64,000 bases of DNA from the NCBI GenBank assembly GCA_963834525.1, contig CAWICA010000002.1, forward strand, positions 36,666-100,665, given 5' to 3'. Positions 1 to 63,223 of the stretch are shown here, piece by piece; position 1 is the first letter of the stretch, and each line of letters begins with the position of its first letter. Both the position numbers and the translations under genes were made by a program. The DNA comes from Bryobacterales bacterium (GTDB lineage Bacteria; Cyanobacteriota; Vampirovibrionia; Obscuribacterales; Obscuribacteraceae). The notes below the pieces were generated by a model. It was not told the DNA's origin and ran no database searches. It worked only from the letters and a program-made list of their open reading frames with translations.

Positions 1-194
1 ACAACCAAAGTGAATATTCTAAACTGCCAGGGAAAAGCGCATGATTATTTGATTTGAATGTAAAGGCAGACTCAGAAGCCGCAAAGCAGGCTGCCCACTG
101 GCAATAGGAAAGATTACTCGATTTTCATGCCAACCATAAACAATGATCTATAGCGATGATCAGGGCGCATCAGCGACGATACAATTTCTGAGCA

Positions 195-1199
195 ATGAGT
201 CAATCAAATATGTCGACCAAAATTGCAGATGTTCAAGCCGAACTCGAGAAAGCTTTTGTAAACTGGCAATTTTTGCCCTATACCCGAATTTATCCTTCGC
301 GACAGGCGTGCGCGCAATCTTTAGCCTCACTTTTCAATTATTCTGAATCCTTTTCCGACAATGGATCAGTTTGGTTGGTACGCCTCGGTGAGCGGCCTGA
401 ATCGTCCTGGTTTGGTGGTTTACGGTTTTTACCGCTGGAAACCGAGGTTTTCGAAGAGCGAACAGCCAGGCTGGAAATTTTCTTTACTGCTGACCCTGAT
501 GCCGTGTCCCCGAGGTCCATGGAAACTGGCATCAGACTCTTAGAAAAGCTTCATGGCGTGGCCAGAGAGCACAAAATCAGACACATCTCTTGTGCGGCGT
601 ACGCTGGTGATACTGCCATTTCTAATGCCGTGGAAACAGTTGGCTATAGAATGACAGACTCCATAGCTTCCTATCATCTACCGATTAAAACACCTCCAGC
701 GGGTGACGATCCATTCATTGGCGAAGCAGTGCCTGCCCACGTCGAGCGACTAGAACAGATCGCGTATGCATGTTTTTCGAATCGGTCACAAAATATCAAT
801 CGATTCAATAGCGATATTGGTCTCGGCCACGAAAGCGTAGGGCGGCTCTACTCACGTTTTGTTCGCGACGCGGTCTTAGATCATCAAGCCGATCTCACCC
901 TGGTGTACAAAGAGCAAGAACTGCCAACCGGTTTTATGACCTTCAAATTGGATAGAAAGCACAAAGGCGATACCACAGAGAAACTGGGGCGGGCTATACT
1001 CAGCGCAGTAGAGCCAAAGTTTCAAGGACACGGCACTTATAGAAAGCTTCTCATACGAGGCTGCCAGTGGCTCTCGGATCAGGGGATCACAGTCATTGAA
1101 GGCAAAACACAGCTATCTAACTATCGCGTCATTAAAGTATGGCAAGAGCTCGGTGCAGAACTAGCGTTTGCTTATCACACGCTACACATCACGTTGTAG
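195..1199 (+). CDS. WecD-like GNAT N-acyltransferase (nucleotide 4-amino-4,6-dideoxyhexose N-acyltransferase family), paralog 1 of 3
   Basis: 334-aa ORF. The C-terminal half follows the E. coli WecD (TDP-fucosamine acetyltransferase) pattern as I recall it: 'CFSNRSQNINRFNSD..LYSRFVRDAV..HQADLTLV', then a GNAT core ending 'EGKTQLSNYRVIKVWQELGAELAFAYHTLHITL'. Clear paralogs lie at 22556-23602 and 30206-31234. Confidence 0.6.
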   Translation: MSQSNMSTKIADVQAELEKAFVNWQFLPYTRIYPSRQACAQSLASLFNYSESFSDNGSVWLVRLGERPESSWFGGLRFLPLETEVFEERTARLEIFFTADPDAVSPRSMETGIRLLEKLHGVAREHKIRHISCAAYAGDTAISNAVETVGYRMTDSIASYHLPIKTPPAGDDPFIGEAVPAHVERLEQIAYACFSNRSQNINRFNSDIGLGHESVGRLYSRFVRDAVLDHQADLTLVYKEQELPTGFMTFKLDRKHKGDTTEKLGRAILSAVEPKFQGHGTYRKLLIRGCQWLSDQGITVIEGKTQLSNYRVIKVWQELGAELAFAYHTLHITL

Positions 1200-17534: not shown

Positions 17535-19454
17535 TTGAGGAATTATCGCCTAAATCTCGAAGAATTATATTGTGCTCAGCTAATAAAAGAACAGCCTGTC
17601 GGACCAGATAGAATTGTCAACTGTAGAACTGCCGCTCGGGACAGTTCGCTGGGACGTTGTGAATTTGCTTTGATTCAGTTTGCCCCTACACTCGCAGCAA
17701 CCAATGCAGCGCTCAAACAAGCAGCGCCAACGGAGCGGCTCAATGCTCTGACGTCACTGCGTTTTTTTGCAGCGATGATGATTGTCTTACTACATTTCTC
17801 GTCTTCCCTCTGTCCAGAAGCTTGGCAGTTCGTCAAATATTTAACTCTAGGCCAGGGAGTCGCTTTTTTCTACGTTCTTTCCGGTTTTATCCTCACTTAC
17901 GTGTATCCTGAGCTTGCTGGGCTTAAGAATGTCCTGGCCTTTCTACGCGCTCGGTTCGCACGTATCTATCCGTGTCATCTCGTTGGTCTTGGATTGTCGC
18001 TCTTACTTGTTCCTACCGTCATGCCACATTCGAAGTTTGTGAAGATCCTGCTGGCGAACTTACTTCTGATTCAGGACTGGATCCCCATACGGGCCTACTA
18101 CTTCTCTTTGAACGCACCGGCATGGAGCATTTCATGCGAATTTTTCTTCTATCTCACATTTCCCTTTCTGATCCATCGATTTGCTAGAACGTGGAAACAA
18201 AAGCTCCTTGCCTGTGCACTCTTGGTCGTATCGCTGATTAGCCTTGGCTGCTACTTAAACTTGCCCATGTATGGAGACGATAACTTCAAAGTAGAGTGCC
18301 ACTGGTTCTTCGCTACCTCGCCTCTTGTCAGAATTTTTGAATTTTGCCTGGGCATGACAGCTGCACTTTTGTTCTCTCGAGTGCGCAATGTATTTAAAGC
18401 AACAAAAGTAACAACCTTACAAATGACAGTGATAGAGATTGTGCTGATGATAGCGGCATTACTTTGTCTGCTTGCCGGTGATCCCATGGCCATTTTAAAA
18501 AGCGCCCATACGAACATCGAAAAGGCATTTTTGATCTGGGCTGTTGGCAGCGGCGGGGCACCAATATATGCAGCAATCTTAATTACTTTCGCGCTGCAAA
18601 TGGGACGAGTATCAAAACTGCTCTGCTTGCCGTTCTTTGTCTTGCTCGGCGATATCAGCTATGCCATTTACTTATTACACTGCCCGATTATTGGATTTAT
18701 CACGCTGCACAAAGCACAACTCATAGATGTGCCACCAATTCTAGTCTACGCCGCTTTCTGGATTGCCACGCTATCTAGTTCTTATCTGTGTTTTGAGCTG
18801 ATTGAAAAACCATTGCGTGGACTGATCGTGGGTAAGGGACTGACTATAATGCCCAGGAAGCTAAACACTGCTCTTGCTGCCAATCTCTGTTGCATTTTCA
18901 TCTTAGTCGGTTTAACATGCGTTGCTCTAAACGCGCGAGCTTTCAATTGGCAGCTTTCTCGGGATAAAGTAATTGCCCTAGTGAATCAAACTCAAGCCGG
19001 AATTTCGGGCACCAAGTTCGGTGACTCATTCGAGTTAGAAGCATGTGCACTCCAACGTCAGGGCAAAGATTATGTGCTTAAACTGGTCTGGCGTAGCCGT
19101 GCCCTGCAGCCGTGTAAATATTACGTGGCAGTTCATGACATGGATGCTAATGGAAAGTTGCTGGGCTATAAGGACTATCCTCAAGATCTAGGTAAGCGCT
19201 GGGTTTGTCCTGGCCAAACCTGGCAAGATGTTGTGCCGATCACTAATTCGCAATGGCAGCAGACTAAACAAATTGGCATCGGCATCTATATCCCAGAGCC
19301 GTTCAGTATGTTGCCTTGCGATCGCGGCAGGCGCGATTATGCCGGTCACCGACTGCTCATTTCGGCAAATGAACTGCAGAATAAAGTAGAGGGAGGCGCA
19401 GCCATCTCAGACCATGCCTTGCGGCCGGTTGTTCACCCACAACAAGAAATGTGA
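17535..19454 (+). CDS. Acyltransferase-3 (OafA/YrhL-type) membrane O-acyltransferase with extra TM and a non-SGNH C-terminal domain, copy 1
   Basis: 'LNALTSLRFFAAMMIVLLHF', 'NAPAWSISCEFFFYLTFPFL' and 'LGDISYAIYLLHCPI' are AT3 hallmarks. An additional TM ('ALAANLCCIFILVGLTCVAL') follows, then a domain of about 130 aa, 'TKFGDSFELEACAL..LKLVWRS..YYVAVHDMDANGKLLGYKDYPQDLGKRWVCPGQTWQD..IGIGIY..CDRGRRDYAGHRLLI'. The true start is probably downstream of the TTG at 17535. Confidence 0.8.
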   Translation: MRNYRLNLEELYCAQLIKEQPVGPDRIVNCRTAARDSSLGRCEFALIQFAPTLAATNAALKQAAPTERLNALTSLRFFAAMMIVLLHFSSSLCPEAWQFVKYLTLGQGVAFFYVLSGFILTYVYPELAGLKNVLAFLRARFARIYPCHLVGLGLSLLLVPTVMPHSKFVKILLANLLLIQDWIPIRAYYFSLNAPAWSISCEFFFYLTFPFLIHRFARTWKQKLLACALLVVSLISLGCYLNLPMYGDDNFKVECHWFFATSPLVRIFEFCLGMTAALLFSRVRNVFKATKVTTLQMTVIEIVLMIAALLCLLAGDPMAILKSAHTNIEKAFLIWAVGSGGAPIYAAILITFALQMGRVSKLLCLPFFVLLGDISYAIYLLHCPIIGFITLHKAQLIDVPPILVYAAFWIATLSSSYLCFELIEKPLRGLIVGKGLTIMPRKLNTALAANLCCIFILVGLTCVALNARAFNWQLSRDKVIALVNQTQAGISGTKFGDSFELEACALQRQGKDYVLKLVWRSRALQPCKYYVAVHDMDANGKLLGYKDYPQDLGKRWVCPGQTWQDVVPITNSQWQQTKQIGIGIYIPEPFSMLPCDRGRRDYAGHRLLISANELQNKVEGGAAISDHALRPVVHPQQEM

Positions 19455-21370
19455 GCACTTTGATTTCCAGATCCAGCACGAACTTTGCGGAGCAAGTCGC
19501 CGCTTCCCCTGCGGCAGTCGATGCCGCACTGCAACGTCCATCCGCACCGGTTCGACTAAACGCTCTGACATCGCTGCGCTTTTTTGCAGCGATGATGATT
19601 GTCTTAATGCATTTTTCCTCCAGCATCTGCCCAGAATCAGTGCCGTTCGTACAATGTCTGGCATTGGGCCAAGGTGTGGCTTTCTTCTATGTTCTTTCCG
19701 GCTTCATCCTCACCTATGTCTATCCAGAGCTTGCTGGTCCTAAAGGTGCCCTGGAATTTCTGCGCGCCCGCTTCGCCCGTATCTATCCGTGTCATCTCGT
19801 TGGTCTCGGATTGTCGCTCCTGCTTGTTCCTACCGTCATACCACATTCCCAGTTCGTAAAGCTTTTGAGTGCTAACCTACTGCTAGTACACGACTGGATT
19901 CCGATCAGTGCCTACTACTACTCATTCAATGCACCGTCGTGGAGCATCTCCTGTGAATTTTTCTTCTACCTCGCATTCCCGTTTCTAATCCATCAATTTG
20001 CCAAAACTTGGAAGCAAAAGTTGCTTGCCTGTGCAGTTCTGTCCGCATCAATGATCGGCATTGCCTGCTACTTAAACTTGCCTATGGTTGCTAATAATAG
20101 TTTCGCATTGGACTCTCAATGGTTCTGCACTGACTCCCCTCTCGTCAGAATTTTTGAATTTTGCCTGGGCATGACAGCTGCGCTTTTGTTCTTTCGAATG
20201 CGCAGTGCATTTAAAGCGACTAAAGCACCGACCCTGCGAATGACTCTGCTAGAGGTTGTTCTGGTCGCAGCAGCATTACGTTATCTGTTGGCAGGAACCA
20301 TTTTATGGAGTGCCAATCCAAACATCGAAAAGGCTTTGTTTTGGGCTATTGGCAGCGGGGGAGCGCCTATATATGCGGCAATCTTAATTATCTTCGCGCT
20401 GCAAATGGGACGACTATCAAAACTACTCTGCTTGCCATTTTTTGTTTTGCTCGGTGACATTAGCTATGCTATTTATTTATTGCACTACCCGATCGTTGGA
20501 TTTATTGCACTGCACAAAGCGCAGCTCGCGGTATTGCCGCCAATTCTGGTCTACGCTGGTTTCTGGATTGCCACACTAGCTGGTGCTTACCTGTGCTTCG
20601 AGCTAATTGAAAAGCCGATGCGTGGACTGATCATGGGTAAGGGCTTAGCAATGCTGCCCAGAAAGCTCACTACCGCATTAGCAGTTAATTTGTGTTGTGT
20701 CTTTGCTTTAGTGGGTCTGACAGGCACTCTTCTAAACGACCGGGTTTGCAATTGGCAGCAGCTTTCGCACGACAAAATAGTATCCCTGACAAAGAGCACC
20801 GCAGCTGGAATTTCGGGCACCAAATTCGGCGGCATATTCGAGCTGAAAGCGTGTGCACTTCAACGCCAGGGCAAAGATTATGAGCTTAAACTTGTCTGGC
20901 GCAGCCGCGCCCTACAGCCGTGTAAATATTACGTGGCTGTTCATCTTTTAGATGCCAGTGGCAAATTGCTTGGATACAAAGATTATCCACAAGATCTTGG
21001 TAAACGCTGGGTCTGCCCTGGACAAACATGGCAAGATGTTGTGCCGATCACCCATGCACAATGGCAGCAGACTAAACAAATTGGCGTCGGCATCTATACC
21101 CCAGAGCCGTTTAGTATGTTGCCTTGCGATCGCGGCAAGCGCGATTATGCCGGTCACCGACTGCTCATTTCGGAAAATGAACTGCAGAAACTAGCAGACA
21201 GTACTTCAGAAATCTCAGACCATGCAGTTCAGACGGTTGTTCATCCACCACAGAAAATGTAATCGCCTTGATTTCCATTTCCAACACCAATTTTGCAGGG
21301 CAAGTTGACTCTACAAGCGCGTCTACCAGTGCCGCAGTGGAAGATCCAGCTGTACCCGTACGGCAAAATA
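17700..21370 (+). repeat. Tandem duplication of a unit of about 1.8 kb (two AT3 genes) plus a partial third unit of about 100 nt forming the 5' end of the next gene
   Basis: Long stretches are nearly identical by eye, for example 'cgtatctatccgtgtcatctcgttggtct' and 'caagatgttgtgccgatcac..caatggcagcagactaaacaaattggc' occur in both copies. The junction 'gttgttca.cca..a.aaatgt.a..c..ttgatttcca..tcc' recurs at about 19430 and about 21235. Boundaries are approximate. Confidence 0.8.
19451..21262 (+). CDS. Acyltransferase-3 membrane O-acyltransferase with the same C-terminal domain, copy 2 (tandem duplicate)
   Basis: 603-aa ORF collinear with copy 1 and highly similar at protein and DNA level. The GTG start overlaps the upstream stop (GTGA). 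Confidence 0.85.
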   Translation: MSTLISRSSTNFAEQVAASPAAVDAALQRPSAPVRLNALTSLRFFAAMMIVLMHFSSSICPESVPFVQCLALGQGVAFFYVLSGFILTYVYPELAGPKGALEFLRARFARIYPCHLVGLGLSLLLVPTVIPHSQFVKLLSANLLLVHDWIPISAYYYSFNAPSWSISCEFFFYLAFPFLIHQFAKTWKQKLLACAVLSASMIGIACYLNLPMVANNSFALDSQWFCTDSPLVRIFEFCLGMTAALLFFRMRSAFKATKAPTLRMTLLEVVLVAAALRYLLAGTILWSANPNIEKALFWAIGSGGAPIYAAILIIFALQMGRLSKLLCLPFFVLLGDISYAIYLLHYPIVGFIALHKAQLAVLPPILVYAGFWIATLAGAYLCFELIEKPMRGLIMGKGLAMLPRKLTTALAVNLCCVFALVGLTGTLLNDRVCNWQQLSHDKIVSLTKSTAAGISGTKFGGIFELKACALQRQGKDYELKLVWRSRALQPCKYYVAVHLLDASGKLLGYKDYPQDLGKRWVCPGQTWQDVVPITHAQWQQTKQIGVGIYTPEPFSMLPCDRGKRDYAGHRLLISENELQKLADSTSEISDHAVQTVVHPPQKM

Positions 21371-22555: not shown

Positions 22556-23602
22556 TTACAATGTGATGTGCAACGTATGATAAGCGAATGCCATCTTACC
22601 GCCGAATTTTTGACTTATGTGGATGACTCGATAATTGGATAGCTGAGTCTTGTTTTCGACCACTGTCACTCCTCTTTGCGCAAGCCACTGACATCCCCTG
22701 GTAAACAGTTTATGGGCAGTGCCTAGTCCTTGCAGTTTTGGCTCAATCGCATTGAGTACGCATTTTGCCAGCCTTTCATTGATCGCTCCTTGGTGATCTC
22801 TATCCAGTTTAAAGGTCATGAAACCGGTTGGGTTACCATTTTGTTTCTGAACCAGTATTAGATCAGCTCGATGCTCGATCACAGCATTGCGGATGAAGCG
22901 AGAATAAAGCTGTCCGATCTGTTCGCGGCGAAGATCGGGGTCGCTATTGAATCGATTGACGTTCTGCGACCGGTCAGTAAAACAAGCACAAGCGATCTCT
23001 TCTAGTCGCCCAACATCGGCTACCGTAGCTTCTTCAATAGAATCTCCACAGCTAGAGTTAGATTCTTTGTCCTCGGTGCACAGTTTGGTGATCGGAACAT
23101 GGTAGGCGACAATGGTGTCTCGCAGTCTGTAGCCAGCAGTTTCAAGAGCATTAACGGCAGCGGCATCACCAGCAAATGCTGAACAAGAGATGTGTTTGAT
23201 CCCATGCCTTCGCGCCACGTCGTGAACCTGCGCTAAAAGTTTGACGCCAGCCCTTACCCCTGGTGCAGACAAAGCCGCCGTTTGGGCAGAGAAGAAAAAC
23301 TCCACTCTGGCTGTCCGCTGTCCGAAAACTTCGCTCTCTAGAGGCAAAAAGCGCAAACCGGCGAACCACTGCGGCTGATCGGGTTCAACCGTGCGAATCA
23401 ACCAGACGGAACCATCCTCCGAAAACACGTCGGCATAATTAAACATCGAGACTGCCGCTTGCGCACAAGCGCTTTTTGACGAATATAGGCTGACGTAAGG
23501 AAGAAATTGCCATTCCGCACAAGCGTCTTCGAGCGCAAGTTCAGCTTCGGATCGAGCACTTTCAGCGACGTTTGAAGTCAAATCTCTGGTAGCCAATATC
23601 AA
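22556..23602 (-). CDS. WecD-like GNAT N-acyltransferase, paralog 2 of 3
   Basis: 348-aa ORF collinear with 195-1199 ('WQFLPYVSLYSSKSACAQAAVSMFNYADVFSEDGSVWLIR', 'FAGLRFLPLESEVFGQRTARVEFFF', ends 'TQLSNYRVIHISQKFGGKMAFAYHTLHITL'). Confidence 0.6.
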   Translation of the reverse strand: MILATRDLTSNVAESARSEAELALEDACAEWQFLPYVSLYSSKSACAQAAVSMFNYADVFSEDGSVWLIRTVEPDQPQWFAGLRFLPLESEVFGQRTARVEFFFSAQTAALSAPGVRAGVKLLAQVHDVARRHGIKHISCSAFAGDAAAVNALETAGYRLRDTIVAYHVPITKLCTEDKESNSSCGDSIEEATVADVGRLEEIACACFTDRSQNVNRFNSDPDLRREQIGQLYSRFIRNAVIEHRADLILVQKQNGNPTGFMTFKLDRDHQGAINERLAKCVLNAIEPKLQGLGTAHKLFTRGCQWLAQRGVTVVENKTQLSNYRVIHISQKFGGKMAFAYHTLHITL

Positions 23603-23711: not shown

Positions 23712-25007
23712 TTAGTGCAGCTTGAAGTCCCAACAGAAATTGAGAAATATACCGCCGACTATATGAGGCACAAAAGCCAAGATTGCCAGTGGGAATTTCC
23801 AGAGCAATTCTTTGCGTGGCACGGTGCCTCGCAAAAAAAGATTGACGCAGAAGCCGGCAGTAGCAATGAAAACCAAAAGGAGAGCGAACTCTGCACACCA
23901 GCCGAAATTTATGCTTGAATAACGCATACCTGACTCTGCCAGGAAATATGCAAAAAAGCAGGCAGACAGCATCACAGCCCAGGCAAAATTAAGTCGTACG
24001 TCTTGTACCGCCTGCTTGAAGAAAAGCAGATAAACAAGAAGCGGACAAAATATTGAGAGGAGAAACTTTTCGCCCAGATGTCCTGAGAACACGGACATCG
24101 GACCGAATGGAGCGAATATTACTGAGGATTTTAGCAGACCGGTCTGAGTCACATAAGTGAAGTAATATTGCCATGCCAGGACGCCGGCAGCAGGCATAAG
24201 CAAACCAAACACCAGAGCGAAGCCGCGTGAGAATTGTTTTTTGAAAAAGTAGAAAGTGGTTACTATTGCCACCACCGGAGCCAAAGCCAACACATAATTA
24301 GGTTTGGCCAATAGCGCCAGGGCCGTAGCCAGCGCTAGCCATAAAACCGTGCTTCGCCGTGGCATCGGTGTAACCATCAGGGTGCCGGTCAAATAAAAAA
24401 CCCAAATCGCTAAGGGCTTTTCCAAGAGTGCCGTGGGGCTGTGGAATACATCGAGCGGTATATAACCGAAAAATGGGCGTAGCCCGTGATTGAGGAGAAA
24501 ACTGATCGGCCCACAAATGCTAATAGCAAAAGCCAACAGCGCATAAATTGGTAGTGAAATATTCATGTCCCTTCGCTGTTGCCGATCTTGCTGATCGACT
24601 TTGATGAGATAAGCGAAGATCGCTGGAGGCAAAGCAAAAGAACAAATCAAGGCAAGAACTCGGCGTATGATAAAGTCGAGGCTCAATGCCGGCAGCAGCT
24701 TGTGAATCGCAATTGCGAAAAGATGATACAGAGGATGCGGCACAGTCAATTGATGACTACGCATCATTTGCGCTGCATACATTAAATGCATATCGTAATC
24801 ATAAGATGGCATACGGTTGAAAGGTAAATAGAAAAAATAGAGCGCGGTTAGGCCAAATAAGAGAGCTAGCGCAACAACACATGCCCGCGGTGCCGAGCGA
24901 AACGAATAAGTTGCGGTCTCAGAGCGAAAAGTATCTATCGCATTCGCCTTGAATGAGCCGCATTCACGCATGGCTGAACTCTCTTTTTTGAACTCAAAAA
25001 GTTGCAT
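23712..25007 (-). CDS. Polytopic inner-membrane protein, GT-C-fold or Wzy-like (paralog of 1168-2514)
   Basis: 431-aa ORF with many hydrophobic segments. It shares motifs with 1168-2514 (see that entry). Confidence 0.45.
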   Translation of the reverse strand: MQLFEFKKESSAMRECGSFKANAIDTFRSETATYSFRSAPRACVVALALLFGLTALYFFYLPFNRMPSYDYDMHLMYAAQMMRSHQLTVPHPLYHLFAIAIHKLLPALSLDFIIRRVLALICSFALPPAIFAYLIKVDQQDRQQRRDMNISLPIYALLAFAISICGPISFLLNHGLRPFFGYIPLDVFHSPTALLEKPLAIWVFYLTGTLMVTPMPRRSTVLWLALATALALLAKPNYVLALAPVVAIVTTFYFFKKQFSRGFALVFGLLMPAAGVLAWQYYFTYVTQTGLLKSSVIFAPFGPMSVFSGHLGEKFLLSIFCPLLVYLLFFKQAVQDVRLNFAWAVMLSACFFAYFLAESGMRYSSINFGWCAEFALLLVFIATAGFCVNLFLRGTVPRKELLWKFPLAILAFVPHIVGGIFLNFCWDFKLH

Positions 25008-25055: not shown

Positions 25056-26546
25056 CTAGATGAACATTGCTGAACTGGGAAAACCGGCAACTGCGAAGTC
25101 GACGCTCTCAATTTTTGGTAGTTGATCGGGAGCCACGGCAGGAGCGGTAGCCGAATGTGCTGGATGGGCAGCGTCATGAACTATATTATCCATGTAGTAA
25201 TCGACTGCCTCTTGCGGGTTTCCTTCTTTGACGATTTGCCCTTTGAACAGAACAATGGCCCGATTGCACAGTTCAATAATATGTTTGCTTTCATGCGAAA
25301 CCAAAACAAGTATTTGGGATTGATTCATCATTTCATGCAGGCGGTCTAAACACTTCTGGACAAACTGCGCATCGCCGGCGGCAAATATTTCATCCATCAA
25401 AAGAATCTCTGGATCGCAGATCGCCCCAATCGAGAAAGCCAAGCGTCCATGCATGCCAGTTGAATAATATTTGATCGGCAGATCGATCATCTCACCAAGC
25501 TCAGAGAACTCGATGATCGCTTTTTCCAGCGCTCTCATCTGCTTGTAAGAGCGGCCCATAAGCGCTCCGTTCAGATAGATGTTCTCCCGCCCGCTCAGTT
25601 CATGATCAAAACCGGTACCCAGCTCGATCAAGGGAGTGATCTTGCCACGGACCAGAATCTCACCCGATTGAGCCGGATAAATGCCGACGATCATTTTCAA
25701 CAAAGTAGATTTGCCGGCGCCATTCAATCCCAGGATTCCCAGCCGATCCCCAGGGCGAAGTTCAAGATTGATGTTTTTCAGAGCGTCGAATTCAGTTACG
25801 GTGTTGTGATTCTTCCGGCTCATTCTCTGAACCACCGTCTCCTTTAGGCCGGGCGACGGATTTCGGTAAAGACGAAAGCGCAATGAGGCATCTCTAACAA
25901 TGACATAGACATCATTGTCGCTCCCCATGCTCTGCGCCTGCGCCGAACCTTCTCCTTCGCCGACGGTAGACACCGACGCCGTGCGCACAAGCAATTGCTG
26001 TTGATGGCGCCGGCTCAATTGCAGCCGTCTAAGGGCCCGGGGAGCGAACAAAAGAACAAAGCACAGAGCGGCCTCAATGAAAATTATGGCGAATGAGATC
26101 TGGGTGCCCTCTATCGACAGCCACCCAAGCGAGCGCACGCCAATGAAGACCGCAGTGACAAGAAAAACTGGCAAGCCAAGCTCGAATGCTTCCTTGATTC
26201 CTGTGTGTCCCCAATTACTTTTGTACACCCCGCAGAGCCAATTGACGAGCAACTGTAGAGCCACCACTATCGGTAGCAACCAGAGCAATTGATGAAGGTA
26301 CCCGGCATCTGCCTCTGATCTAAACAGGTCGAAATGGAAGCGGGCTATAAACGCTCCCACCAAAGCGAGCGCAATCAGAGCCGCATCGATGACCATTTGC
26401 CCAAGCCGCCTGGCCGTCACATTGGCGATCTCGGTAGTTTGAGTTATACCTGAATCTCGCGGCTGGACAAGAGTCTCCTGCGTAGCTGGTTGCGTTGCGG
26501 ATTCAGTTATGGGTTCAGTCAAAAGCGTGTTTGTTGTCGGTGCCAT
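25056..26546 (-). CDS. wzt: Wzt/TagH/KpsT-type polysaccharide-export ABC ATPase with an N-terminal four-TM extension
   Basis: The NBD has Walker A 'GILGLNGAGKSTLLKM', 'LIELGTGFDHELSGRENIYLNGALMG', signature 'YSTGMHGRLAFS' and Walker B 'ILLMDEIFAAGD'. About 230 aa carrying four hydrophobic helices precede it. The track ORF starts at 26609 and overlaps wzm. ATG at 26546 ('MAPTTN') is the more likely start. Confidence 0.85.
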   Translation of the reverse strand: MAPTTNTLLTEPITESATQPATQETLVQPRDSGITQTTEIANVTARRLGQMVIDAALIALALVGAFIARFHFDLFRSEADAGYLHQLLWLLPIVVALQLLVNWLCGVYKSNWGHTGIKEAFELGLPVFLVTAVFIGVRSLGWLSIEGTQISFAIIFIEAALCFVLLFAPRALRRLQLSRRHQQQLLVRTASVSTVGEGEGSAQAQSMGSDNDVYVIVRDASLRFRLYRNPSPGLKETVVQRMSRKNHNTVTEFDALKNINLELRPGDRLGILGLNGAGKSTLLKMIVGIYPAQSGEILVRGKITPLIELGTGFDHELSGRENIYLNGALMGRSYKQMRALEKAIIEFSELGEMIDLPIKYYSTGMHGRLAFSIGAICDPEILLMDEIFAAGDAQFVQKCLDRLHEMMNQSQILVLVSHESKHIIELCNRAIVLFKGQIVKEGNPQEAVDYYMDNIVHDAAHPAHSATAPAVAPDQLPKIESVDFAVAGFPSSAMFI

Positions 26547-26580
26547 GATAGTCAAAAGATCCCCAGCAAATAAGAAACCG

Positions 26581-30096
<3,516 letters not shown>

Positions 30097-30205: not shown

Positions 30206-31234
30206 TCAATAATGAAAGTGATATTGATGATACGACCTTAGAATTTTTGCTCCCAGGCGCTGCCAAGTGGAATGAATCCTGCCTGAGAGCTGTGTGCCAA
30301 TCTGAACGTATTCAACGTCCTTTTCCTTAAGCCAATTTATGGTGGCGTGGACCAGGCATTTATAAATCCCACGTCCTTGGAACCCAGGTTTTACAGCATT
30401 AAGCGGAATGGTGGCAATGTTCTCGCCCGTTTGGCGCTCCTTCGTCGACGGCAGCTTTACCGATAAAAAGCCTGCCAGTTGCCCACCCTTTTCATAGACA
30501 AGTACTCGGTCGGCAAGGTCGCCGTCAAGACATCGGCTCACCCATTGGCGATAGAGAAGGCGAACCTGAGCCATGGAAAACATTGGATCGTTACTGAAAT
30601 GGTTCACACTATTTTTACGATCGCCAAAACACTCTTCGGCTATTTCTTCAAGCGGCAGACGATCTGTTGCCACAGCCGGCCGGATGAGGGAATCTGACAT
30701 CAATAGATCAGCTTGCCTTATTGCCAACCGATAGATGATCACAGTGTCGGCCAAGAAAAAGTTGCTTCTGGCCAACGCTATCGGCATAAGTCCATCATCA
30801 GCTTCGACAGAAGCAGTCAAATGAGTAAGCGCCTGTTTCTTTCCCTCCGCACAAATGAACGAGATAAAGTCTTGAGCCTCATTCACCACCTGCCAATTCA
30901 ATGAACTGAGTGAGGGGCTCAAGATTGGCTCAACTTTGCCGAATCTTCCTTCAAAAAACTCTGAATAGAAGTCGACAACTCTCAGGCCAGCCAAATACTG
31001 ATCGCCTGTAGCTGACGAGCCATAAAGCCAGGAAGCATCACCTTGAAGAAGCTTTTCCGAGACCAATGGGACAGCGCTTGCATTTTTGTCTCCGTCAGGA
31101 CCGGACTGTCCAGATTTTGTCGCTTTTCTAACTAGATCTTTGGCGATTTTAAGATCCTCCTCACTTTGCAAAATGGAAGTCTGTAGCGGAATGGAGGAGC
31201 ACGTCATAGTTAATAAGCTAGAACAGTCAGACAA
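30206..31234 (-). CDS. WecD-like GNAT N-acyltransferase, paralog 3 of 3 (most divergent)
   Basis: 342-aa ORF. 'CFGDRKNSVNHFSNDPMFSMAQVRLLYRQWVSRCLDGDLADRVLV' and 'PGFQGRGIYKCLVHATINWLKEKDVEYVQIGTQLSGRIHSTWQRLGAKILRSYHQYHFHY' parallel the other two copies. Confidence 0.55.
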   Translation of the reverse strand: MSDCSSLLTMTCSSIPLQTSILQSEEDLKIAKDLVRKATKSGQSGPDGDKNASAVPLVSEKLLQGDASWLYGSSATGDQYLAGLRVVDFYSEFFEGRFGKVEPILSPSLSSLNWQVVNEAQDFISFICAEGKKQALTHLTASVEADDGLMPIALARSNFFLADTVIIYRLAIRQADLLMSDSLIRPAVATDRLPLEEIAEECFGDRKNSVNHFSNDPMFSMAQVRLLYRQWVSRCLDGDLADRVLVYEKGGQLAGFLSVKLPSTKERQTGENIATIPLNAVKPGFQGRGIYKCLVHATINWLKEKDVEYVQIGTQLSGRIHSTWQRLGAKILRSYHQYHFHY

Positions 31235-41910: not shown

Positions 41911-42806
41911 AGCGACCGAGAGTACTGATCTTTGGCGGCAAAGGAATGCTCGGGCACAAGCTGGCTCAGACGATTTCCGAAACCTGCGAAACACTAGCTA
42001 CGGTTAGAGAAACACAATTAGATTCTTTTACGAAGAAAGTTCTCGCTGATGTTGAGATCATCCCTTCAGTGGCAGTGGAGGATTTCGCTCAAATTCAATC
42101 CCTGATCAAAAAGATTCATCCGGCAGTGATCGTGAATTGCGTGGGAATCGTCAAGCAATTGCCGGCAGCGCAAGACTATATCAGTAGTATTGCGGTAAAT
42201 GCCTTGTTTCCCCATCAGCTTGCTCAAATTTGCAGATCAGAGAGCGTCCGCTTGATCGCTTTAAGCACCGATTGTGTCTTCTCCGGAAAGAAAGGCATGT
42301 ATACGGACTCCGACACACCGGATCCTGTTGATCTCTATGGTCGAACAAAATATTTGGGTGAAGTGCCTTTTGAGGGATGTCTGACTATACGAACATCCAT
42401 GATTGGGCGGCAATTAACCGGCACACATGGGCTCCTTGAATGGTTTTTGAATCAGCCTGACGCAAAAGTAAAAGGTTACAAAAATGCCATCTTCAGCGGA
42501 CTGACCACCAATACTTTGTCGCAAGTAATTGCGGAATTGATTTTTAAGCACCCGCAACTGTGCGGAATTTGGCAGGTAGCAGCTCAGCCCATTGCCAAAT
42601 TTGATCTGCTTCATGTAATAAAAGACGTGTACAACTTAGAGGTATCCATCGAGCCGGATACGGCTTACGTTTGCGACAGATCGTTGAATGGAGAAAGATT
42701 TAGAGAAGCCACATCGATAGTGATTCCCGACTGGACTGATATGATTACCCAGATGTACAGAGATCCGACCCCGTATCCAGCGCGGAGCATGCTGCATGTT
42801 AAGTGA
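41907..42806 (+). CDS. RmlD-like 4-reductase (dTDP-4-dehydrorhamnose reductase family, WbvR-like)
   Basis: 'RVLIFGGKGMLGHKL', 'LSTDCVFSGKKGMYTDSDTPDPVDLYGRTKYLGE'. 299 aa. It overlaps the next gene. Confidence 0.7.
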   Translation: MKRPRVLIFGGKGMLGHKLAQTISETCETLATVRETQLDSFTKKVLADVEIIPSVAVEDFAQIQSLIKKIHPAVIVNCVGIVKQLPAAQDYISSIAVNALFPHQLAQICRSESVRLIALSTDCVFSGKKGMYTDSDTPDPVDLYGRTKYLGEVPFEGCLTIRTSMIGRQLTGTHGLLEWFLNQPDAKVKGYKNAIFSGLTTNTLSQVIAELIFKHPQLCGIWQVAAQPIAKFDLLHVIKDVYNLEVSIEPDTAYVCDRSLNGERFREATSIVIPDWTDMITQMYRDPTPYPARSMLHVK

Positions 42807-43866
42807 TAAAAGAGTAGTTGTTTTCGGCGGCACTGGCTCGCTCGGCAAAGTTCTCGTGCGCCGGTTGCTGGAAGGGGAATTGGGCAAACCTAAGAAATTG
42901 CTGGTAGTTTCACGAGATGAAGCTAAGCAACATTTCATGAGACTCGAGTTTCAGAGACTGGCGGCAGCGAGCACGGACGAGATCTTTTACCATAACTACG
43001 AAAGGGTTTTGCAGTTCCACATCGGCGATGTGCGCGACTATAGCTCGGTTTTGACTGCGCTGAGAAACGCCGACTACGTTTTTAATGCAGCAGCATTGAA
43101 GCAAGTACCCGCCTGTGAATATTTCCCGTTTGAAGCCGTACAAACAAATATCGTCGGTGCTGAGAATATTATTCGAGCCGTTAGAGAGAACCATTTGCCG
43201 ATTCAGGCTGTCGTCGGCGTGTCCACTGACAAGGCCTGCAAACCAGTCAATGTTATGGGCATGACCAAAGCGATCCAAGAGAGACTTTACGGCCGAGCCA
43301 ATTTGGATTGCCCGAATACACGATTTGTCTGTGCCCGCTATGGCAACGTCATTGCCTCCAGAGGATCAGTGATACCACTTTTTCGCGAGCAAATTGCCCA
43401 GGGCGGTCCGGTCACCGTAACCACTGCCGATATGACTCGCTTTTTGCTGGGGTTAGATCGAGCTGTTGATACCATTCTCGAAGCATTGAAGAGTGGCAAA
43501 CCGGGAGAGATCTATATCCCCCGCTGCCCGGCAGCAAAAATAATTGACGTAGCCGAAGTAATTATTGGTGACCAGCCGATCGAAATAAAGATCATCGGCA
43601 TTCGACCCGGCGAAAAACTACACGAGTCGTTAATCTCAGCGGAAGAAGGCTATCGGACGATCGAACGAAATGGCTACTATGTCATTCTGCCAATGTTGCC
43701 AGAGTTGCAACCGGACAAATTCGAAGTCTACAAACTTGCGGGACGAGAGTACGATTCGCAATGCGATCTCATGAACAAAGAGCAAATCGAAAAGCTGCTT
43801 AGACAATACAATCTTCTCCTCGACGAAAGTACTCGAGTACGCATCAAACAAAGCCTTGCGGTATGA
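42796..43866 (+). CDS. UDP-GlcNAc 4,6-dehydratase/5-epimerase of the CapE/FnlA/WbjB/WbvB type
   Basis: 'VVVFGGTGSLGKVL', 'SRDEAKQ', 'HIGDVRDYSSV', 'FNAAALKQVPACEYFPFEAVQTNIVGAENI' and 'VSTDKACKPVNVMGMTKA', where Met occupies the usual Tyr position as in CapE. Also 'YGNVIASRGSVIPLF' and 'MTRF'. Confidence 0.8.
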   Translation: MLSDKRVVVFGGTGSLGKVLVRRLLEGELGKPKKLLVVSRDEAKQHFMRLEFQRLAAASTDEIFYHNYERVLQFHIGDVRDYSSVLTALRNADYVFNAAALKQVPACEYFPFEAVQTNIVGAENIIRAVRENHLPIQAVVGVSTDKACKPVNVMGMTKAIQERLYGRANLDCPNTRFVCARYGNVIASRGSVIPLFREQIAQGGPVTVTTADMTRFLLGLDRAVDTILEALKSGKPGEIYIPRCPAAKIIDVAEVIIGDQPIEIKIIGIRPGEKLHESLISAEEGYRTIERNGYYVILPMLPELQPDKFEVYKLAGREYDSQCDLMNKEQIEKLLRQYNLLLDESTRVRIKQSLAV

Positions 43867-54411: not shown

Positions 54412-56730
54412 TCAAATACAGACCTTTTCTGCCAGTTTCTTAGAGCGCACAAGCAGCGATCGATAGCAATCGATCATTCTCTGCTCGCTAAAATTCTTTC
54501 TGACGCTTTCGTATGCACCAGCACCCAAACGCTTCGTCAAATCGCGATTATCAATTAGCCTCTGAATAATCGCGCAGAACTGATCAAGATTCCCCGGCTC
54601 GACTAAAAAGCCGTTCTCTCCATTGCGAATCATGATCGGAATTGAGCCGACGCTGGTGGCAACAACCGGCTTTCCATAAACCTGAGCATGTAATACGACT
54701 AGCGGCTGCCCATCATCGAGCGATGGAACCACCACCACATCTGATACCGAGACGAGCGGATCGACACTTTCGACAAAACCAGGCATGAAAATGCGTGCGC
54801 GCAAGTCAAATCGATCGATAAGACTCTCCACCCTGTCTCTCTCTGGTCCGTCACCAACCATAGAAAAGAAAACATTTGGCTGATCCTTCAACTGGTTAAC
54901 TATACGAACAAACATGGACGGATCTTTCTCTGGTGAGAGGCGGCCGAAAAAGGACACAACAAATTTTCCCGCTGCATCTGCCGGTAGAGCGCTTCGTCCC
55001 TTAATCACAGACCGCTCGATTTCAAGTTCTGTCGGTATGCGAATACCATGAGGCACCACATGTACCTTGTCGGTAACGTCTTTCAGTCCTGAGCGCAACT
55101 TGCCAGCCAATATTTCTGAAGGCACCACCGTTGCATCGACATATTGATGCAATTTCTGATTGCTCAACATATGCTTGCCATCATTGAATTGCTGATCGAT
55201 CACATTTATCGATGGATAGCATTGCTTGATCTCGGGCAGTAAATCGTAGCCCAATGTGCTACCAATCAAGAACACGTTGCCAAATCGTTCTCGCTCGATC
55301 AAGTCCAAAAGCTGCTTTTTTCGTTGATTGTCATCTGCAGACAATTCAGGCAACTTAAGGACCGAACAGCCTAGCACCTCAAACATAGGCGCACAGTCAC
55401 CCATGTTGGGTAGCACATCTCTAGTTGTCACAGCACTAAACCTGTAAACCGGCGTCAGTGCTTTTATCAAAGCAGTGAACAACGTTTGAAAGCCGCCGAC
55501 TGGCAACCAGGGGAAAACGAAAAGAACCTTGTCGCAATGTAGGGGCAAATCTGTACCGCTACCGTTTTTGCCCTCAAACAATTGCACAAACTGCTTGTTG
55601 ATTACCTTTTCGTCAAATGTGGAGGCGCAAATCTCAAATCCTCTTGTCCCCAATTGCTTAGCTAGATCCGGGCGCTTACACAAATCAGCTATCTTTGCCG
55701 AGAAGCCATCGAGATCCCCCGGTTCAACTAAATAGCCGTTCACACCATCGATAACCATCGTCGAAATTTGGCCAACGTTCGAGGCAATCACAGGTTTTGA
55801 GTGCGTGAGAGCATGCAGCACAATCAGCGGTTGTCCGTCTGTTACTGAGGGAACAACAAGGACATCCGATGCCGCCACAAGAGGGTCTACTTTTTCCACA
55901 AAACCGGAAACGTAGATTCTGTTCTGCAGATCCAACTCGTCGATTAGTTTGACCACTTCCGCCTTTTCCGGTCCATCACCTACCAGACAGAAGAAGCAAT
56001 CAGAAACATCTCGCAAGCGTTCAACGATACGCACAAAAAACAAGGCATTTTTTTCTGGCGACAGACGCGCAAGAAATGACACGACAAACTTTCCTTTCGC
56101 CGCATCCGGCAGTTGTCGCTTGCCGGAAGCTAAAGCTTGTGCTCGCTCGCTGGCGGAGGGTATGGCTATGCCACAGGGGATGACCACGATCTTGGTTTGG
56201 ATCTCGTTTACACCTTGCCTCAATTGAGCGGCGATGGTTTCACTGGGAACGATCGTTGTATCGATGAAGCCGTTCAGTGCTTGATTCTTTTTCATGTGCT
56301 TGCCATCGTCCCACAATTCATCAATGACATCGATTTCGGGATGTCGACATTTAATCTCCGGCAGCAAATCGTAAGCCATGGTACAACCGACGATGATCAG
56401 ATGATTGAATTTACCTCTTTCAACCAGATCGACAAACAACTTAGACCGCTCTTCATCAGTCTTGGCCAGATTAGGGAGATGCTCGACCTTACAACCAATG
56501 GACTCGAAGGCTTGAGTTCTGTCTCCCATATTGGGCATGGGATCGCGGGTGGTGACAACTGTAAAGTGAGTACCGGACATGTCCTTAATACGTCCTGAGT
56601 AGAGCGTTTCCACGCCGCTTACTGGCAGCCAAGGAAGCGCCAAAAGTACTTTTCGGCTGCGGGTCCCGAGATCCTCACTTTGATTGGATCGTTTGGAAAA
56701 TATCTTCTCTAAAAATCGCATGAGCAGCAT
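54412..56730 (-). CDS. Tandem double-GT4 glycosyltransferase (two complete GT-B modules in one polypeptide, WbdA-like architecture)
   Basis: 772-aa ORF. The halves are mutually homologous ('KVLLALPWLPVSGVETLYS..VVTTRDPMPNMGDRTQAFESIGCKVEHLPNL' vs 'KVLFVFPWLPVGGFQTLFT..AVTTRDVLPNMGDCAPMFEVLGCSVLKLPEL'). Each half ends in 'SPEK..F..IV..L' and 'VPS..DGQPLVVLHA...KPV(I/V)A(S/T)'. Confidence 0.8.
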   Translation of the reverse strand: MLLMRFLEKIFSKRSNQSEDLGTRSRKVLLALPWLPVSGVETLYSGRIKDMSGTHFTVVTTRDPMPNMGDRTQAFESIGCKVEHLPNLAKTDEERSKLFVDLVERGKFNHLIIVGCTMAYDLLPEIKCRHPEIDVIDELWDDGKHMKKNQALNGFIDTTIVPSETIAAQLRQGVNEIQTKIVVIPCGIAIPSASERAQALASGKRQLPDAAKGKFVVSFLARLSPEKNALFFVRIVERLRDVSDCFFCLVGDGPEKAEVVKLIDELDLQNRIYVSGFVEKVDPLVAASDVLVVPSVTDGQPLIVLHALTHSKPVIASNVGQISTMVIDGVNGYLVEPGDLDGFSAKIADLCKRPDLAKQLGTRGFEICASTFDEKVINKQFVQLFEGKNGSGTDLPLHCDKVLFVFPWLPVGGFQTLFTALIKALTPVYRFSAVTTRDVLPNMGDCAPMFEVLGCSVLKLPELSADDNQRKKQLLDLIERERFGNVFLIGSTLGYDLLPEIKQCYPSINVIDQQFNDGKHMLSNQKLHQYVDATVVPSEILAGKLRSGLKDVTDKVHVVPHGIRIPTELEIERSVIKGRSALPADAAGKFVVSFFGRLSPEKDPSMFVRIVNQLKDQPNVFFSMVGDGPERDRVESLIDRFDLRARIFMPGFVESVDPLVSVSDVVVVPSLDDGQPLVVLHAQVYGKPVVATSVGSIPIMIRNGENGFLVEPGNLDQFCAIIQRLIDNRDLTKRLGAGAYESVRKNFSEQRMIDCYRSLLVRSKKLAEKVCI

Positions 56731-58994: not shown

Positions 58995-60197
58995 CTTCAA
59001 CTTTCTAAGCGGGGCTGTCACTTTCCACGACATGCTGTTGCCGATTTCGCTCAATGCTTGGCGCAATTCGGCAATCTCCTTGTCTTTTTCCATAGTCTCT
59101 TGCTTCAAAGAGTTGGTTGTCTCTAACAGCTCAGATTTTTCCTTGTTCCAATTCAATTCAGACTGAGCATATGCTCGTGCTGCTGCTTTGCCTTTGCGCA
59201 AGCCGCTTTGATACAAAGCACTTTGCAAAAATGACAAAATTGCTAATCCTTTTAATTCAGATGAAAGATTGCGCGGCTTGCCTCGCTCGCTAGAAAAGAA
59301 CGAAAGCGGATCAGCTCCACCGCACATGTCTTGCAATACTGATGTTGGCTCCTGCAAGCGCTTGGCCTCGGACAGCTCGTATTCAAAATGGCGAATCACC
59401 ATATCAATGACATTTAAACAATAATCTTCCGAGGTCAGTCCCGCTTTTTCCAGATAATTCTTGTACCTCGCGCCCAAAAGAAACCAATCCATGGAAGCAG
59501 TCATATCGGCTGAACGAGCTTGGCTCCAGCTTTCAGCATGGTGCCGGAATTTACACAGCTCATCAGCAATGAAGTAATAGTCGCCGTGCTGCAATAGGCG
59601 ATAACTGTATTCCAGATCACCAATTTGTTTGAACGCCGGATCGTAACCAGTGCCCGCGTGTTCTCTGCGAAACATTTGCGAAACCGGCTCACCAAGCCAA
59701 TTGACAGCCTCCTTGAGCGTTTTGGCAATCGCTTCGACAGCGGAGATCCGGGTGTCTTGGGTAAACGGCTTCATAACTTTAGCAGCACGCTGCGACTTCG
59801 CTTCCAGTACTTGTCCTTCGGCATCGATCCAGGATCTGGCGCTGGTCACTAAGCTAACACCGTGTTCTTTCTCAAGAACGGCAACCATCCTCTCTATAGC
59901 ATCCGGTCTAAGAAGATCGTCGTGGGCAAACGGTTTTATGTATTTGCCGGTCGCACGCCTCATACATTCATTGTAATTGCCAAATAACTTCAAGTTTCGC
60001 TCGTTTATCCAATGCTTGATGCGAGTATCTTTGTCCGCATATGACGCAATGATTTGCTCTGTCTCGTCAGTCGATCGATCGTTAGCAATGAGCAGCTCAA
60101 AGTCTGAATAAGTTTGCGCCAAAACGCTATCGATAGCCTGGGACAGATAATTGACACCGTTATAAACTGGCAAGCAGATTGATACTTCAGGCATCAT
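58980..60197 (-). CDS. GT2 glycosyltransferase with C-terminal coiled coil and S-W-K tail
   Basis: 'VSICLPVYNGVNYLSQAIDSVLAQTYSDFELLIANDRSTDET' and 'FAHDDLL' (DXD intact). C-terminal 'KDKEIAELRQALSEIGNSMSWKVTAPLRKLKSRQN'. The start ATG shares one base with the upstream TAA stop. Confidence 0.7.
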   Translation of the reverse strand: MMPEVSICLPVYNGVNYLSQAIDSVLAQTYSDFELLIANDRSTDETEQIIASYADKDTRIKHWINERNLKLFGNYNECMRRATGKYIKPFAHDDLLRPDAIERMVAVLEKEHGVSLVTSARSWIDAEGQVLEAKSQRAAKVMKPFTQDTRISAVEAIAKTLKEAVNWLGEPVSQMFRREHAGTGYDPAFKQIGDLEYSYRLLQHGDYYFIADELCKFRHHAESWSQARSADMTASMDWFLLGARYKNYLEKAGLTSEDYCLNVIDMVIRHFEYELSEAKRLQEPTSVLQDMCGGADPLSFFSSERGKPRNLSSELKGLAILSFLQSALYQSGLRKGKAAARAYAQSELNWNKEKSELLETTNSLKQETMEKDKEIAELRQALSEIGNSMSWKVTAPLRKLKSRQN

Positions 60198-63100: not shown

Positions 63101-63223
63101 GTCAAACGGAAGGAATCTATGTGGCGGTGGCGCTGATTTCGCCGGCACCTCCGGCAATTGAGACTGCCGGCTATAGGACAACTTACGCCAGGGTGGGAGC
63201 CAAGTAGGGAGCCGGAAATTCAT
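60197..63223 (-). CDS. 1008-aa multidomain glycosyltransferase: six N-terminal repeats of about 37 aa, a GT2 domain, and a C-terminal GT-B-like domain
   Basis: Repeats 'FD..FY....(10-14)..HY...G..EG..P.P.' occur 6 times (residues about 40-265). GT2 domain: 'VTVIVPVYRDKELSLACVYSVL..YQLIVIDDASPE', 'VLLNSDAIVFDGWL', 'YGEENDFCLRATARGW'. The C-terminus 'LKVAVIGALALNKGRDVV..HFVIVGGSTDE..FFASVWPETFSYTLSIAM' is GT-B-like. Confidence 0.75.
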   Translation of the reverse strand: MNFRLPTWLPPWRKLSYSRQSQLPEVPAKSAPPPHRFLPFDELFYGSQADLPLAANAFEHYVSVGDAIGLRPHPLFDSRFYLGQLSGKRPTGMTLLEHYLDSGEEQGLNPHPLFDVRFYKKQLALSQPVESALVHYLTEGWKRGFKPHPTFDPLYYLTANADVRAAQVEPLCHYIRCGDQEGRQPNPYFDTVYYRQYCGQLSQYETALEHYLQYGRHDRMRPNRAFDQDFYLFQNPDVAVYEYGPFAHYCQIGAKENRCTVPPGIAMSNPLDDDEFCQGQEIAPVPKAPSADDWQKLATERARQSEASANDSSLLSEGKPVVTVIVPVYRDKELSLACVYSVLQAASSLPYQLIVIDDASPESELSFELDLLAKLQLFKLIRNEENLGFVRSVNKGFAASSSTDIVLLNSDAIVFDGWLDRLTAAAHSHPQIGTVTPLSNNAIICSYPKFLQNNDKKLEIEYRDLDGIVARLHAGKIVDIPTAVGFCMLIKRECLADVGAFDQEAFGKGYGEENDFCLRATARGWRNVLAADVFVRHIGNASFGADKNIHLEHGEKVIRERYPFYEKLIDDFCKIDPVASVRQQIDLARAVPAKFDRSILLFGHRLGGGVERHTLDLAERWQALGVRAFIIRPSRKAAEIGEVYCLDTGLLPNIKIDMSAPWPQTEELLKALKVGHIHFNQLACYGPRVKDWVEMVSVNCDVPIDFSTHDYAVICPRANFIDGSGIYCREPDQSSCQTCIDANGSAYGRVNVSTWRADFQRLLKRMRAVIVQNPDVLARFASRFDGLNLIMQPYPEKLPAVPLPIKRRSVDEPLKVAVIGALALNKGRDVVIACAQDACERRLPLHFVIVGGSTDEAVLGKLPNVSITGPYQEDKVMDVIDRIGCHASFFASVWPETFSYTLSIAMCANLYPFAFDLGAIANRLKQINWGTLFPIDWMKQAGKINDQILDTKLVSLAAVHGEDYRALAEEYYQLPAGFIQQPWRDLYKSRSDQPDHDNSEQLVAFAQR

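Follow-up and report, generated by a model that had tools for sequence, protein, structure and literature searches.

The closest described relatives of the system considered here are the WzmWzt O-antigen transporter (Aquifex aeolicus Wzt, PDB 6AMX/6OIH/7K2T/8DKU), the mycobacterial galactan ATPase Wzt/RfbE and the TarGH/TagGH transporters, which share with it the type of nucleotide-binding domain (NBD) and the use of a separate ABC-2 permease, encoded by a gene of its own, as partner. Characterised Wzt proteins begin at the NBD, are soluble subunits and carry a C-terminal carbohydrate-binding domain only optionally (PMC9445017). A four-transmembrane-helix (4TMH) module is known from other proteins of glycan assembly. 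In the dehydratases PglF, CapD (Cap5D) and WbpM it is always followed by a domain whose function is unknown (DUF, PF13727) and a short-chain dehydrogenase/reductase (SDR) dehydratase domain, and in the WbaP-type large phosphoglycosyltransferases (PGTs) it precedes a DUF and the PGT core. Here we describe a protein in which a PglF-type 4TMH module is followed by a Wzt NBD instead. It is encoded in a stretch of 64,000 nucleotides from Bryobacterales bacterium (GTDB lineage Bacteria; Cyanobacteriota; Vampirovibrionia; Obscuribacterales; Obscuribacteraceae; NCBI GenBank assembly GCA_963834525.1, contig CAWICA010000002.1, positions 36,666 to 100,665 of the forward strand), hereafter the window. In contrast to characterised Wzt proteins, the fused protein has ~230 extra N-terminal residues with four transmembrane helices and lacks a carbohydrate-binding domain. 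The 4TMH-Wzt fusion is real and forms a single open reading frame (ORF), and this membrane-anchored Wzt is a variant that combines two known parts, a Wzt-type NBD and a PglF-type 4TMH module.

By sequence comparison, the 4TMH is homologous to the N-terminal module of PglF/CapD/WbpM-type dehydratases. A HMMER scan with residues 1-235 against 1.84 billion cluster representatives (50% identity) gave 111 matches at E<=1e-3, including 9 at E<=1e-10 and a best value of 1.3e-27, all of them over residues ~60-220. Pfam recognised CoA_binding_3 (the DUF, PF13727) in 54 of the matches, Polysacc_synt_2 in 26 and ABC_tran in none, and many of the remaining matches are N-terminal fragments. Reciprocal phmmer searches, with the dehydratases P0006, P0015, P0024, P0032 and P0020 (full-length or C-terminally truncated) and with P0059, whose class is unassigned, as queries, recovered the fused ORF over residues ~62-233 at E values of 2e-27 to 6e-12, and within the 64-kb window no other ORF matched these queries through a membrane part. 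Identity to the PglF, CapD and WbpM modules is 36-44%, and the conserved D, RF, LP, GxY(R/K)xxW and the R after helix 4 are shared. The rest of the dehydratase is missing: Pfam matched neither CoA_binding_3 (PF13727) nor Polysacc_synt_2 (PF02719) in the 517-residue protein, and the sole PF02719 dehydratase of the window is a soluble PseB/FnlA-like protein (42796..43866).

The initial annotation, made from the sequence alone, had likened the membrane module both to WbpM/PglF/CapD and to WbaP. The first comparison stands on the HMMER and reciprocal phmmer matches, whereas WbaP did not appear in the sequence or fold searches. No protein of the WbaP layout (4TMH-DUF-PGT) was identified among the 111 HMMER matches, and for the five with a Bac_transf match (three full-length proteins and two fragments) a probe puts the PGT domain upstream of the module. 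Sequence-profile searches of the PDB with the 4TMH returned nothing at E<=10. A Foldseek search of the modelled module against the PDB returned insignificant helical bundles (best E 0.52), simple bundles being hard for Foldseek, and WbaP was outside its top 50; the PDB should hold the cryo-EM structure of WbaP reported in PMC10942596. The number of helices and their cytoplasmic ends are alike in WbaP-type PGTs and the fused protein, and no sequence link was found. WbaP and PglF have the 4TMH and DUF in common by structure, with a loose fit of the 4TMH (RMSD 4.3 Å; PMC10942596), and the link to WbaP is thus indirect, as it rests on this published likeness. A separate observation from the same matches concerns P0040, P0063 and P0070, bifunctional proteins of 830-885 residues in which a small PGT (PglC-like) domain is followed by 4TMH, DUF and dehydratase. 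In this layout the 4TMH is also found internally, and initiation and sugar modification are physically joined in some lineages.

The four hydrophobic helices and the G-x-Y-(R/K)-x-x-W turn after helix 2 that had been read from the translation are both borne out. Kyte-Doolittle hydropathy exceeds 1.5 over 19 residues in four segments (aa 68-96, 102-130, 138-166 and 166-194) at the positions proposed, and AlphaFold2 (AF2) folds aa 62-205, from a 30-sequence alignment, into four long helices, a small hairpin separating the third from the fourth, at a mean predicted local distance difference test score (pLDDT) of 93.6 and a predicted template modelling score (pTM) of 0.87. The full-length model, in which only 3 sequences back the N-terminal part, has the four-helix bundle preceded by a disordered leader and a confident NBD preceded by a disordered linker. 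The turn is present as G-V-Y-K-S-N-W, in agreement with the family consensus GVYRxxWRY. In the 30-sequence alignment the family-invariant residues D75 (helix 1), R90, P113, W133 and R191 are all retained, as is the further family pattern R90-F91, LP in helix 2 (P113) and G127-x-Y129-(R/K)-x-x-W133. The R-Y that PglF, CapD and WbpM keep after the loop Trp has been replaced in the fused protein and in both of its homologues described below (WRY to WGH, WTQ or WNQ). The DUF of WbaP sits as a cap over the cytosolic loops of the four-helix bundle (PMC10942596), and the altered WRY would fit the loss of this partner.

The bundle is Arg-rich at both ends, with ARRLGQ before helix 1 and PRALRRLQLSRRH after helix 4. 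Together with the even number of helices, these flanks suggest an N-in/C-in topology with the NBD in the cytoplasm. Between bundle and NBD lies a linker that is not conserved among the fused homologues and stands where the DUF (CoA_binding_3) starts in PglF-like proteins. Its VGEGEGSAQ was considered as a relic of the GxGxxG strand of the DUF (VGAGDAGQ in PglF-like proteins); the likeness is missing in both homologues and was hence treated as chance.

The NBD identifies the protein, from sequence, as a Wzt/TagH-type ATPase, predicted to serve an exporter of a polyprenol-linked glycan. Pfam places ABC_tran (PF00005) at aa 277-409 (E 1.9e-18), and the top NCBIfam matches over aa 233-474 are Wzt/RfbE (E 1.4e-62) and TagH (E 3.5e-47). 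Scores are under the equivalog cut-offs of both models (211 vs 400), which makes this a Wzt-type NBD and not an orthologue of the galactan exporter or of another named system. The best sequence match in the PDB is A. aeolicus Wzt (7e-58), followed by mycobacterial RfbE (2e-52) and TarH (6e-47), and the alignment begins at NBD residue 13 and takes in the gate-helix segment. The partner permease is encoded directly upstream in the same orientation (wzm; PF01061 E 6.6e-12, NCBIfam Wzm/RfbD E 2.3e-22). As the initial annotation had it, only a short tail and no glycan-binding domain follow the NBD: the ~37 residues there are predicted to be disordered, and Pfam finds no Wzt_C (PF14524) in the 517-residue protein.

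A full-length search found two further proteins of the same layout. P0113 (487 aa, 63% identity over 89% of the query) is encoded on several contigs, of NCBI, JGI, ENA and Logan origin, and P0114 has 763 aa (59% identity over 86% of the query). The two come from independent assemblies of different samples, and wzm directly precedes the fused wzt in all three loci, that is, in the window, in L002 with P0113 and in L005 with P0114. Among the fused proteins the NBDs are 77-85% identical whereas the 4TMH modules are 37-44% identical, the modules being about as similar to each other as to PglF-like modules of the same lineage. All three fused proteins retain 14 of the 20 columns whose conservation in PglF-like modules is >=60%, among them D75, R90, P113, W133 and R191. 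When 50 modules are placed in a neighbour-joining tree, those of the fused proteins group together as a clade (99/100 bootstraps), and its sister clade holds a PglF-like protein encoded in the P0113 locus and a Candidatus Obscuribacterales protein, which together point to a single capture from a lineage-specific dehydratase. That full-length PglF-like protein (651 aa) is encoded two genes upstream of the fused gene in L002, and recent duplication from its gene was rejected, given an identity of only ~38%.

Two side observations concern these loci. P0114 (L005:1991-4282) is a triple fusion after wzm, in which 4TMH and Wzt NBD are followed at the C-terminus by a TylF-type O-methyltransferase (PF05711/PF13578), and a methyltransferase on the ATPase recalls the chain-terminating methylation of cap-dependent O-antigen systems. 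In the P0113 locus an Acyl_transf_3 gene (L002:11544-13331) directly follows the fused wzt.

The layout appears rare, with three lineages found in a census that is incomplete. Of the 80 top-ranked GTDB species-representative loci with related Wzt genes, mostly of Melainabacteria and Obscuribacterales, not one has the module within 5 kb. Locus scans with the 4TMH alignment in genome and metagenome contigs, and with the 4TMH of the window in metagenome contigs, gave pattern matches only and no confirmed relatives. With aa 1-235 as query, a word-index search recovered nothing beyond a fragment of this very sequence, and one with the three-sequence 4TMH alignment came back empty, missing P0113 itself, and has no bearing on prevalence. 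P0113 and P0114 are missing from the N-terminal HMMER matches, presumably because they are clustered under NBD-only representatives; representatives at 50% identity thus hide fusions, and the absence of ABC_tran among the 111 matches is weak evidence of rarity. No description of the layout, either as 4TMH-Wzt or in the archaeal form below, was found in the literature searched. On these counts the architecture appears not to be a common or already described subclass of Wzt, which agrees with the initial annotation.

Anchoring by other means seems to exist as well. Among the 119 best Wzt relatives, the Methanobacterium proteins P0192, P0212 and P0213 (404 aa) have four predicted N-terminal transmembrane helices, a linker and a Wzt-type NBD. 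They thus have the same overall plan, and the gene of P0212 (L088:4498-5712) lies in a glycan locus, downstream of an ABC-2 permease gene and separated from it by ~830 bp that include a dTDP-sugar isomerase gene. However, no resemblance of these archaeal helices to the PglF-type 4TMH could be detected (profile scores <5 bits), so membrane anchoring of a Wzt-type NBD apparently arose at least twice, the archaeal form being an independent invention. Further close Wzt relatives, in the clade of the fused protein (P0133-P0142, P0158/P0171/P0185, P0159 and P0131), are joined to many other accessory domains, the partners including Sulfotransfer_3 (~630-640 aa), DUF563/GT61-like (PF04577) and Methyltransf_12; in P0131 the N-terminal region of ~480 residues has no Pfam match. 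The Wzt NBD in this clade seems to be a frequent fusion partner of glycan-modifying enzymes. In P0122, P0124-P0126 and P0128-P0130 (Oculatellaceae and others; 465-481 aa) the Wzt carries a C-terminal domain of ~200 residues without a Pfam match and with the motif …GDGWH…EEFRW…NDVE…, which may be an unrecognised glycan-binding domain.

We consider it probable that the fused protein is the ATPase of a Wzm/Wzt exporter with a captured PglF/CapD-like 4TMH that tethers the exporter and probably docks it to its substrate or to 4TMH-bearing enzymes. A Wzt ancestor would have taken only the 4TMH of a lineage-specific PglF/CapD-like dehydratase, leaving behind the enzyme's DUF and catalytic domain, and the captured helices, with both ends inside, would have been placed in front of the NBD, which stays cytoplasmic. 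The flexible linker would join helix 4 to the first NBD strand ~15-20 residues ahead of the gate helix; in transporters of solved structure this helix extends up to the lipid-linked substrate, where Wzm opens laterally (PMC13649706). Given this point of attachment, each Wzm2Wzt2 complex would carry two extra 4TMH bundles beside the entrance of the Wzm channel. The bundles would hold the ATPase at the membrane and probably serve to dock it, either to the polyprenol-linked substrate or to further assembly enzymes with a 4TMH. Because there is no C-terminal glycan-binding domain, the 4TMH could be how the substrate meets the exporter, and docking would then substitute for that domain in uniting the two. 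That the intramembrane Asp and the flanking Arg and Trp are retained speaks for a specific role and against a passive anchor. The bundles of WbaP make up a dimer stalk (PMC10942596), and full-length CapD is reported to be inhibited by lipid II (PMC6441080), which is compatible with a membrane part that senses polyprenol-linked molecules.

Several observations weigh against this reading. Why PGTs and dehydratases share the 4TMH has been described as 'puzzling' (PMC10942596), and PglF retains catalytic activity when truncated (PMC6441080). In the 64-kb window no full-length PglF-like gene, no second 4TMH copy and no 4TMH-bearing partner turned up, and among its scanned ORFs there is no initiating PGT (Bac_transf, Glycos_transf_4) and no Wzx/Wzy-type gene; the initiating enzyme must hence be encoded elsewhere. 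The closest NBD relatives, P0115 and P0116 (87% identity) and P0117 (81%), are unfused, with a start that overlaps wzm by 4 nt, and in a weakly supported NBD tree they share a clade with the fused proteins, which are not monophyletic there (7/100). Either the module was lost or NBDs were exchanged, and the module is dispensable or easily lost. The lower identity of the modules than of the NBDs likewise indicates a weaker constraint on the module.

The same facts lend some weight to an anchor that is passive or near-neutral, the 4TMH being a leftover of recombination between a pglF-like gene and wzt, without a specific partner. Such a leftover could be lost or absent in P0115, P0116 and P0117, would evolve much faster than the NBD and could end in a disordered, unconserved linker. 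This is a serious rival, which we nevertheless think rather unlikely: the ORF is intact, three lineages now as far apart as ~40% identity have all kept most of the family columns, and the model of the 4TMH is confident. The intramembrane Asp and the loop Trp are needless for mere anchoring, and soluble Wzt NBDs already sit on Wzm and need no added anchor.

Docking might also be general. It is conceivable, at rather long odds, that the 4TMH is a portable docking module of a membrane 'glycan factory', carried by large PGTs as initiating transferases, by PglF/CapD-like proteins as the first enzymes of sugar modification and, in this lineage, by an export ATPase, and that the bundle would lead these proteins to one another or to the undecaprenyl-phosphate carrier that they share. 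If so, this would be the first case of export wired physically to initiation through the 4TMH, and a natural experiment showing the bundle at work in the absence of its customary partner, the DUF.

We regard it as very improbable that the gene is an artefact, with a soluble Wzt starting near M228 and the upstream frame being a pseudogene remnant or a misassembly. M228 is an ATG 5 residues ahead of the NBD, and a Logan contig (L001), otherwise identical to the window, has a 1-nt deletion that splits the ORF, so that a 335-aa 'Wzt' is called there. However, this contig has low coverage and differs from the window within a C/G homopolymer run, and the difference is probably an assembly error, a genuine frameshift variant being less likely. 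The N-terminal part is coding-like in frame (0.11 per codon; mean of window genes 0.138, minimum 0.083) and negative in both alternative frames. An internal start at M228 was rejected: the Met is not conserved in P0113 or P0114, both of which read through from the 4TMH into the NBD in their independent assemblies, and the sequence, read directly, has no Shine-Dalgarno-like element at a usable distance from it. The start thus most probably does not lie downstream of the hydrophobic region.

Two ATGs lie upstream of helix 1, M1 and M22, and the four helices are retained with either. The first (26609) sits in the final nine codons of wzm, a 29-nt overlap; M22 lies 34 nt past the wzm stop and would bring the length of the leader nearer to that of the homologues. 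The leader has a pLDDT below 50 in the full-length model and is unalignable with P0113 or P0114. From M1 the NBD is preceded by 232 residues and from M22 by 211, and the figure of about 230 residues ahead of a Wzt/TagH-type NBD, given at the outset, is accurate for the former. Single-chain half-transporters in which a transmembrane domain (TMD) is joined to an NBD are common among ABC exporters, and that the four helices are such a TMD in a homodimer without Wzm is scarcely credible, since wzm stands directly before the fused gene in all three loci, the helices share homology with a module found in non-transport enzymes and with no ABC TMD, and Wzm-paired NBDs have 77-87% identity to the NBD here.

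The entire 64-kb window, which the nearest homologues would place in the Obscuribacterales (Melainabacteria), is devoted to glycan assembly (Table 1). It holds many glycosyltransferases of families GT2 and GT4, three DegT aminotransferases, WecD-like acetyltransferases, Acyl_transf_3 proteins, a PseB/FnlA-like soluble dehydratase, a UDP-GlcNAc 2-epimerase, methyltransferases and others. The position of the polytopic protein encoded directly downstream of wzt suggests a periplasmic-face glycan-modifying or ligase-like role. Three similarly built proteins with a C-terminal GNAT domain are scattered in the locus, each with an N-terminal region of ~200 residues whose function is unassigned; the one at 22556..23602, the only one so checked, matches WecD/RffC (NCBIfam). 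The two large multi-domain glycosyltransferases are typical of polymerising enzymes in ABC-transporter-dependent pathways.

Table 1 Features of the fused gene and of the surrounding locus, in window coordinates
Feature	Coordinates	Strand	Remarks
Fused 4TMH-Wzt ORF	25056..26609	minus	517 aa from first ATG, stop included; ORF listing
N-terminal leader, aa 1-61	26427..26609	minus	polar, T/Q/P-rich, unconserved
Alternative start M22	26546	minus	second ATG of the fused ORF
4TMH module, aa 62-205	25995..26426	minus	HMMER, reciprocal phmmer, AF2
4TMH helices, aa 63-90, 99-125, 138-160, 173-204		minus	AF2 model
G-V-Y-K-S-N-W motif, aa 127-133	26211..26231	minus	cytoplasmic loop, helices 2-3
Linker, aa 206-232	25914..25994	minus	variable, ~20-27 residues, predicted disordered, pLDDT ~41
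Wzt/TagH-type ABC NBD, aa 233-480	25170..25913	minus	Pfam, NCBIfam; pLDDT >90
Gate-helix region	25803-25862	minus	in NBD, ahead of Walker A
Walker A GLNGAGKST	25704-25730	minus	in NBD
Q-loop ELGTGF	25608-25625	minus	in NBD
Signature YSTGM	25452-25466	minus	in NBD
Walker B ILLMDE	25389-25406	minus	in NBD
H-loop VSHES	25287-25301	minus	in NBD
C-terminal tail, aa 481-517 (~37 residues)	25059..25169	minus	disordered, pLDDT ~30
wzm, ABC-2 permease partner	26581..27534	minus	317 aa; directly upstream, same orientation
L001:1-400 against the window	25800..26260		Logan contig ERR12035941; 1-nt deletion and SNP in run CCCCGGGCCC
Polytopic membrane protein	23712..25007	minus	431 aa; directly downstream of wzt; no Pfam/NCBIfam match
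Protein with C-terminal GNAT	195..1199	plus	one of three similarly built proteins, ~335-350 aa
Protein with C-terminal GNAT	22556..23602	minus	one of three similarly built proteins, ~335-350 aa
Protein with C-terminal GNAT	30206..31234	minus	one of three similarly built proteins, ~335-350 aa
Acyl_transf_3 gene, first of tandem	17535..19454	plus	639 aa; 4-nt overlap with next, long C-terminal extension
Acyl_transf_3 gene, second of tandem	19451..21262	plus	603 aa; long C-terminal extension
Glycosyltransferase	60197..63223	minus	1008 aa; GT2 then GT4-type domains
Glycosyltransferase	54412..56730	minus	772 aa; two Glycos_transf_1 matches

The practical reach of the finding is limited, as it concerns uncultured Melainabacteria with only three lineages known. 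Within these it offers a natural comparison between the fused protein and unfused relatives with 87%-identical NBDs. The locus puts the four-helix bundle, without the DUF, on a third functionally unrelated protein class of the same pathway, which argues for an autonomous module selected for something that the members of the pathway share. This could be their position in the membrane, the carrier lipid or each other, and the bundle is unlikely to be an appendage of catalysis.

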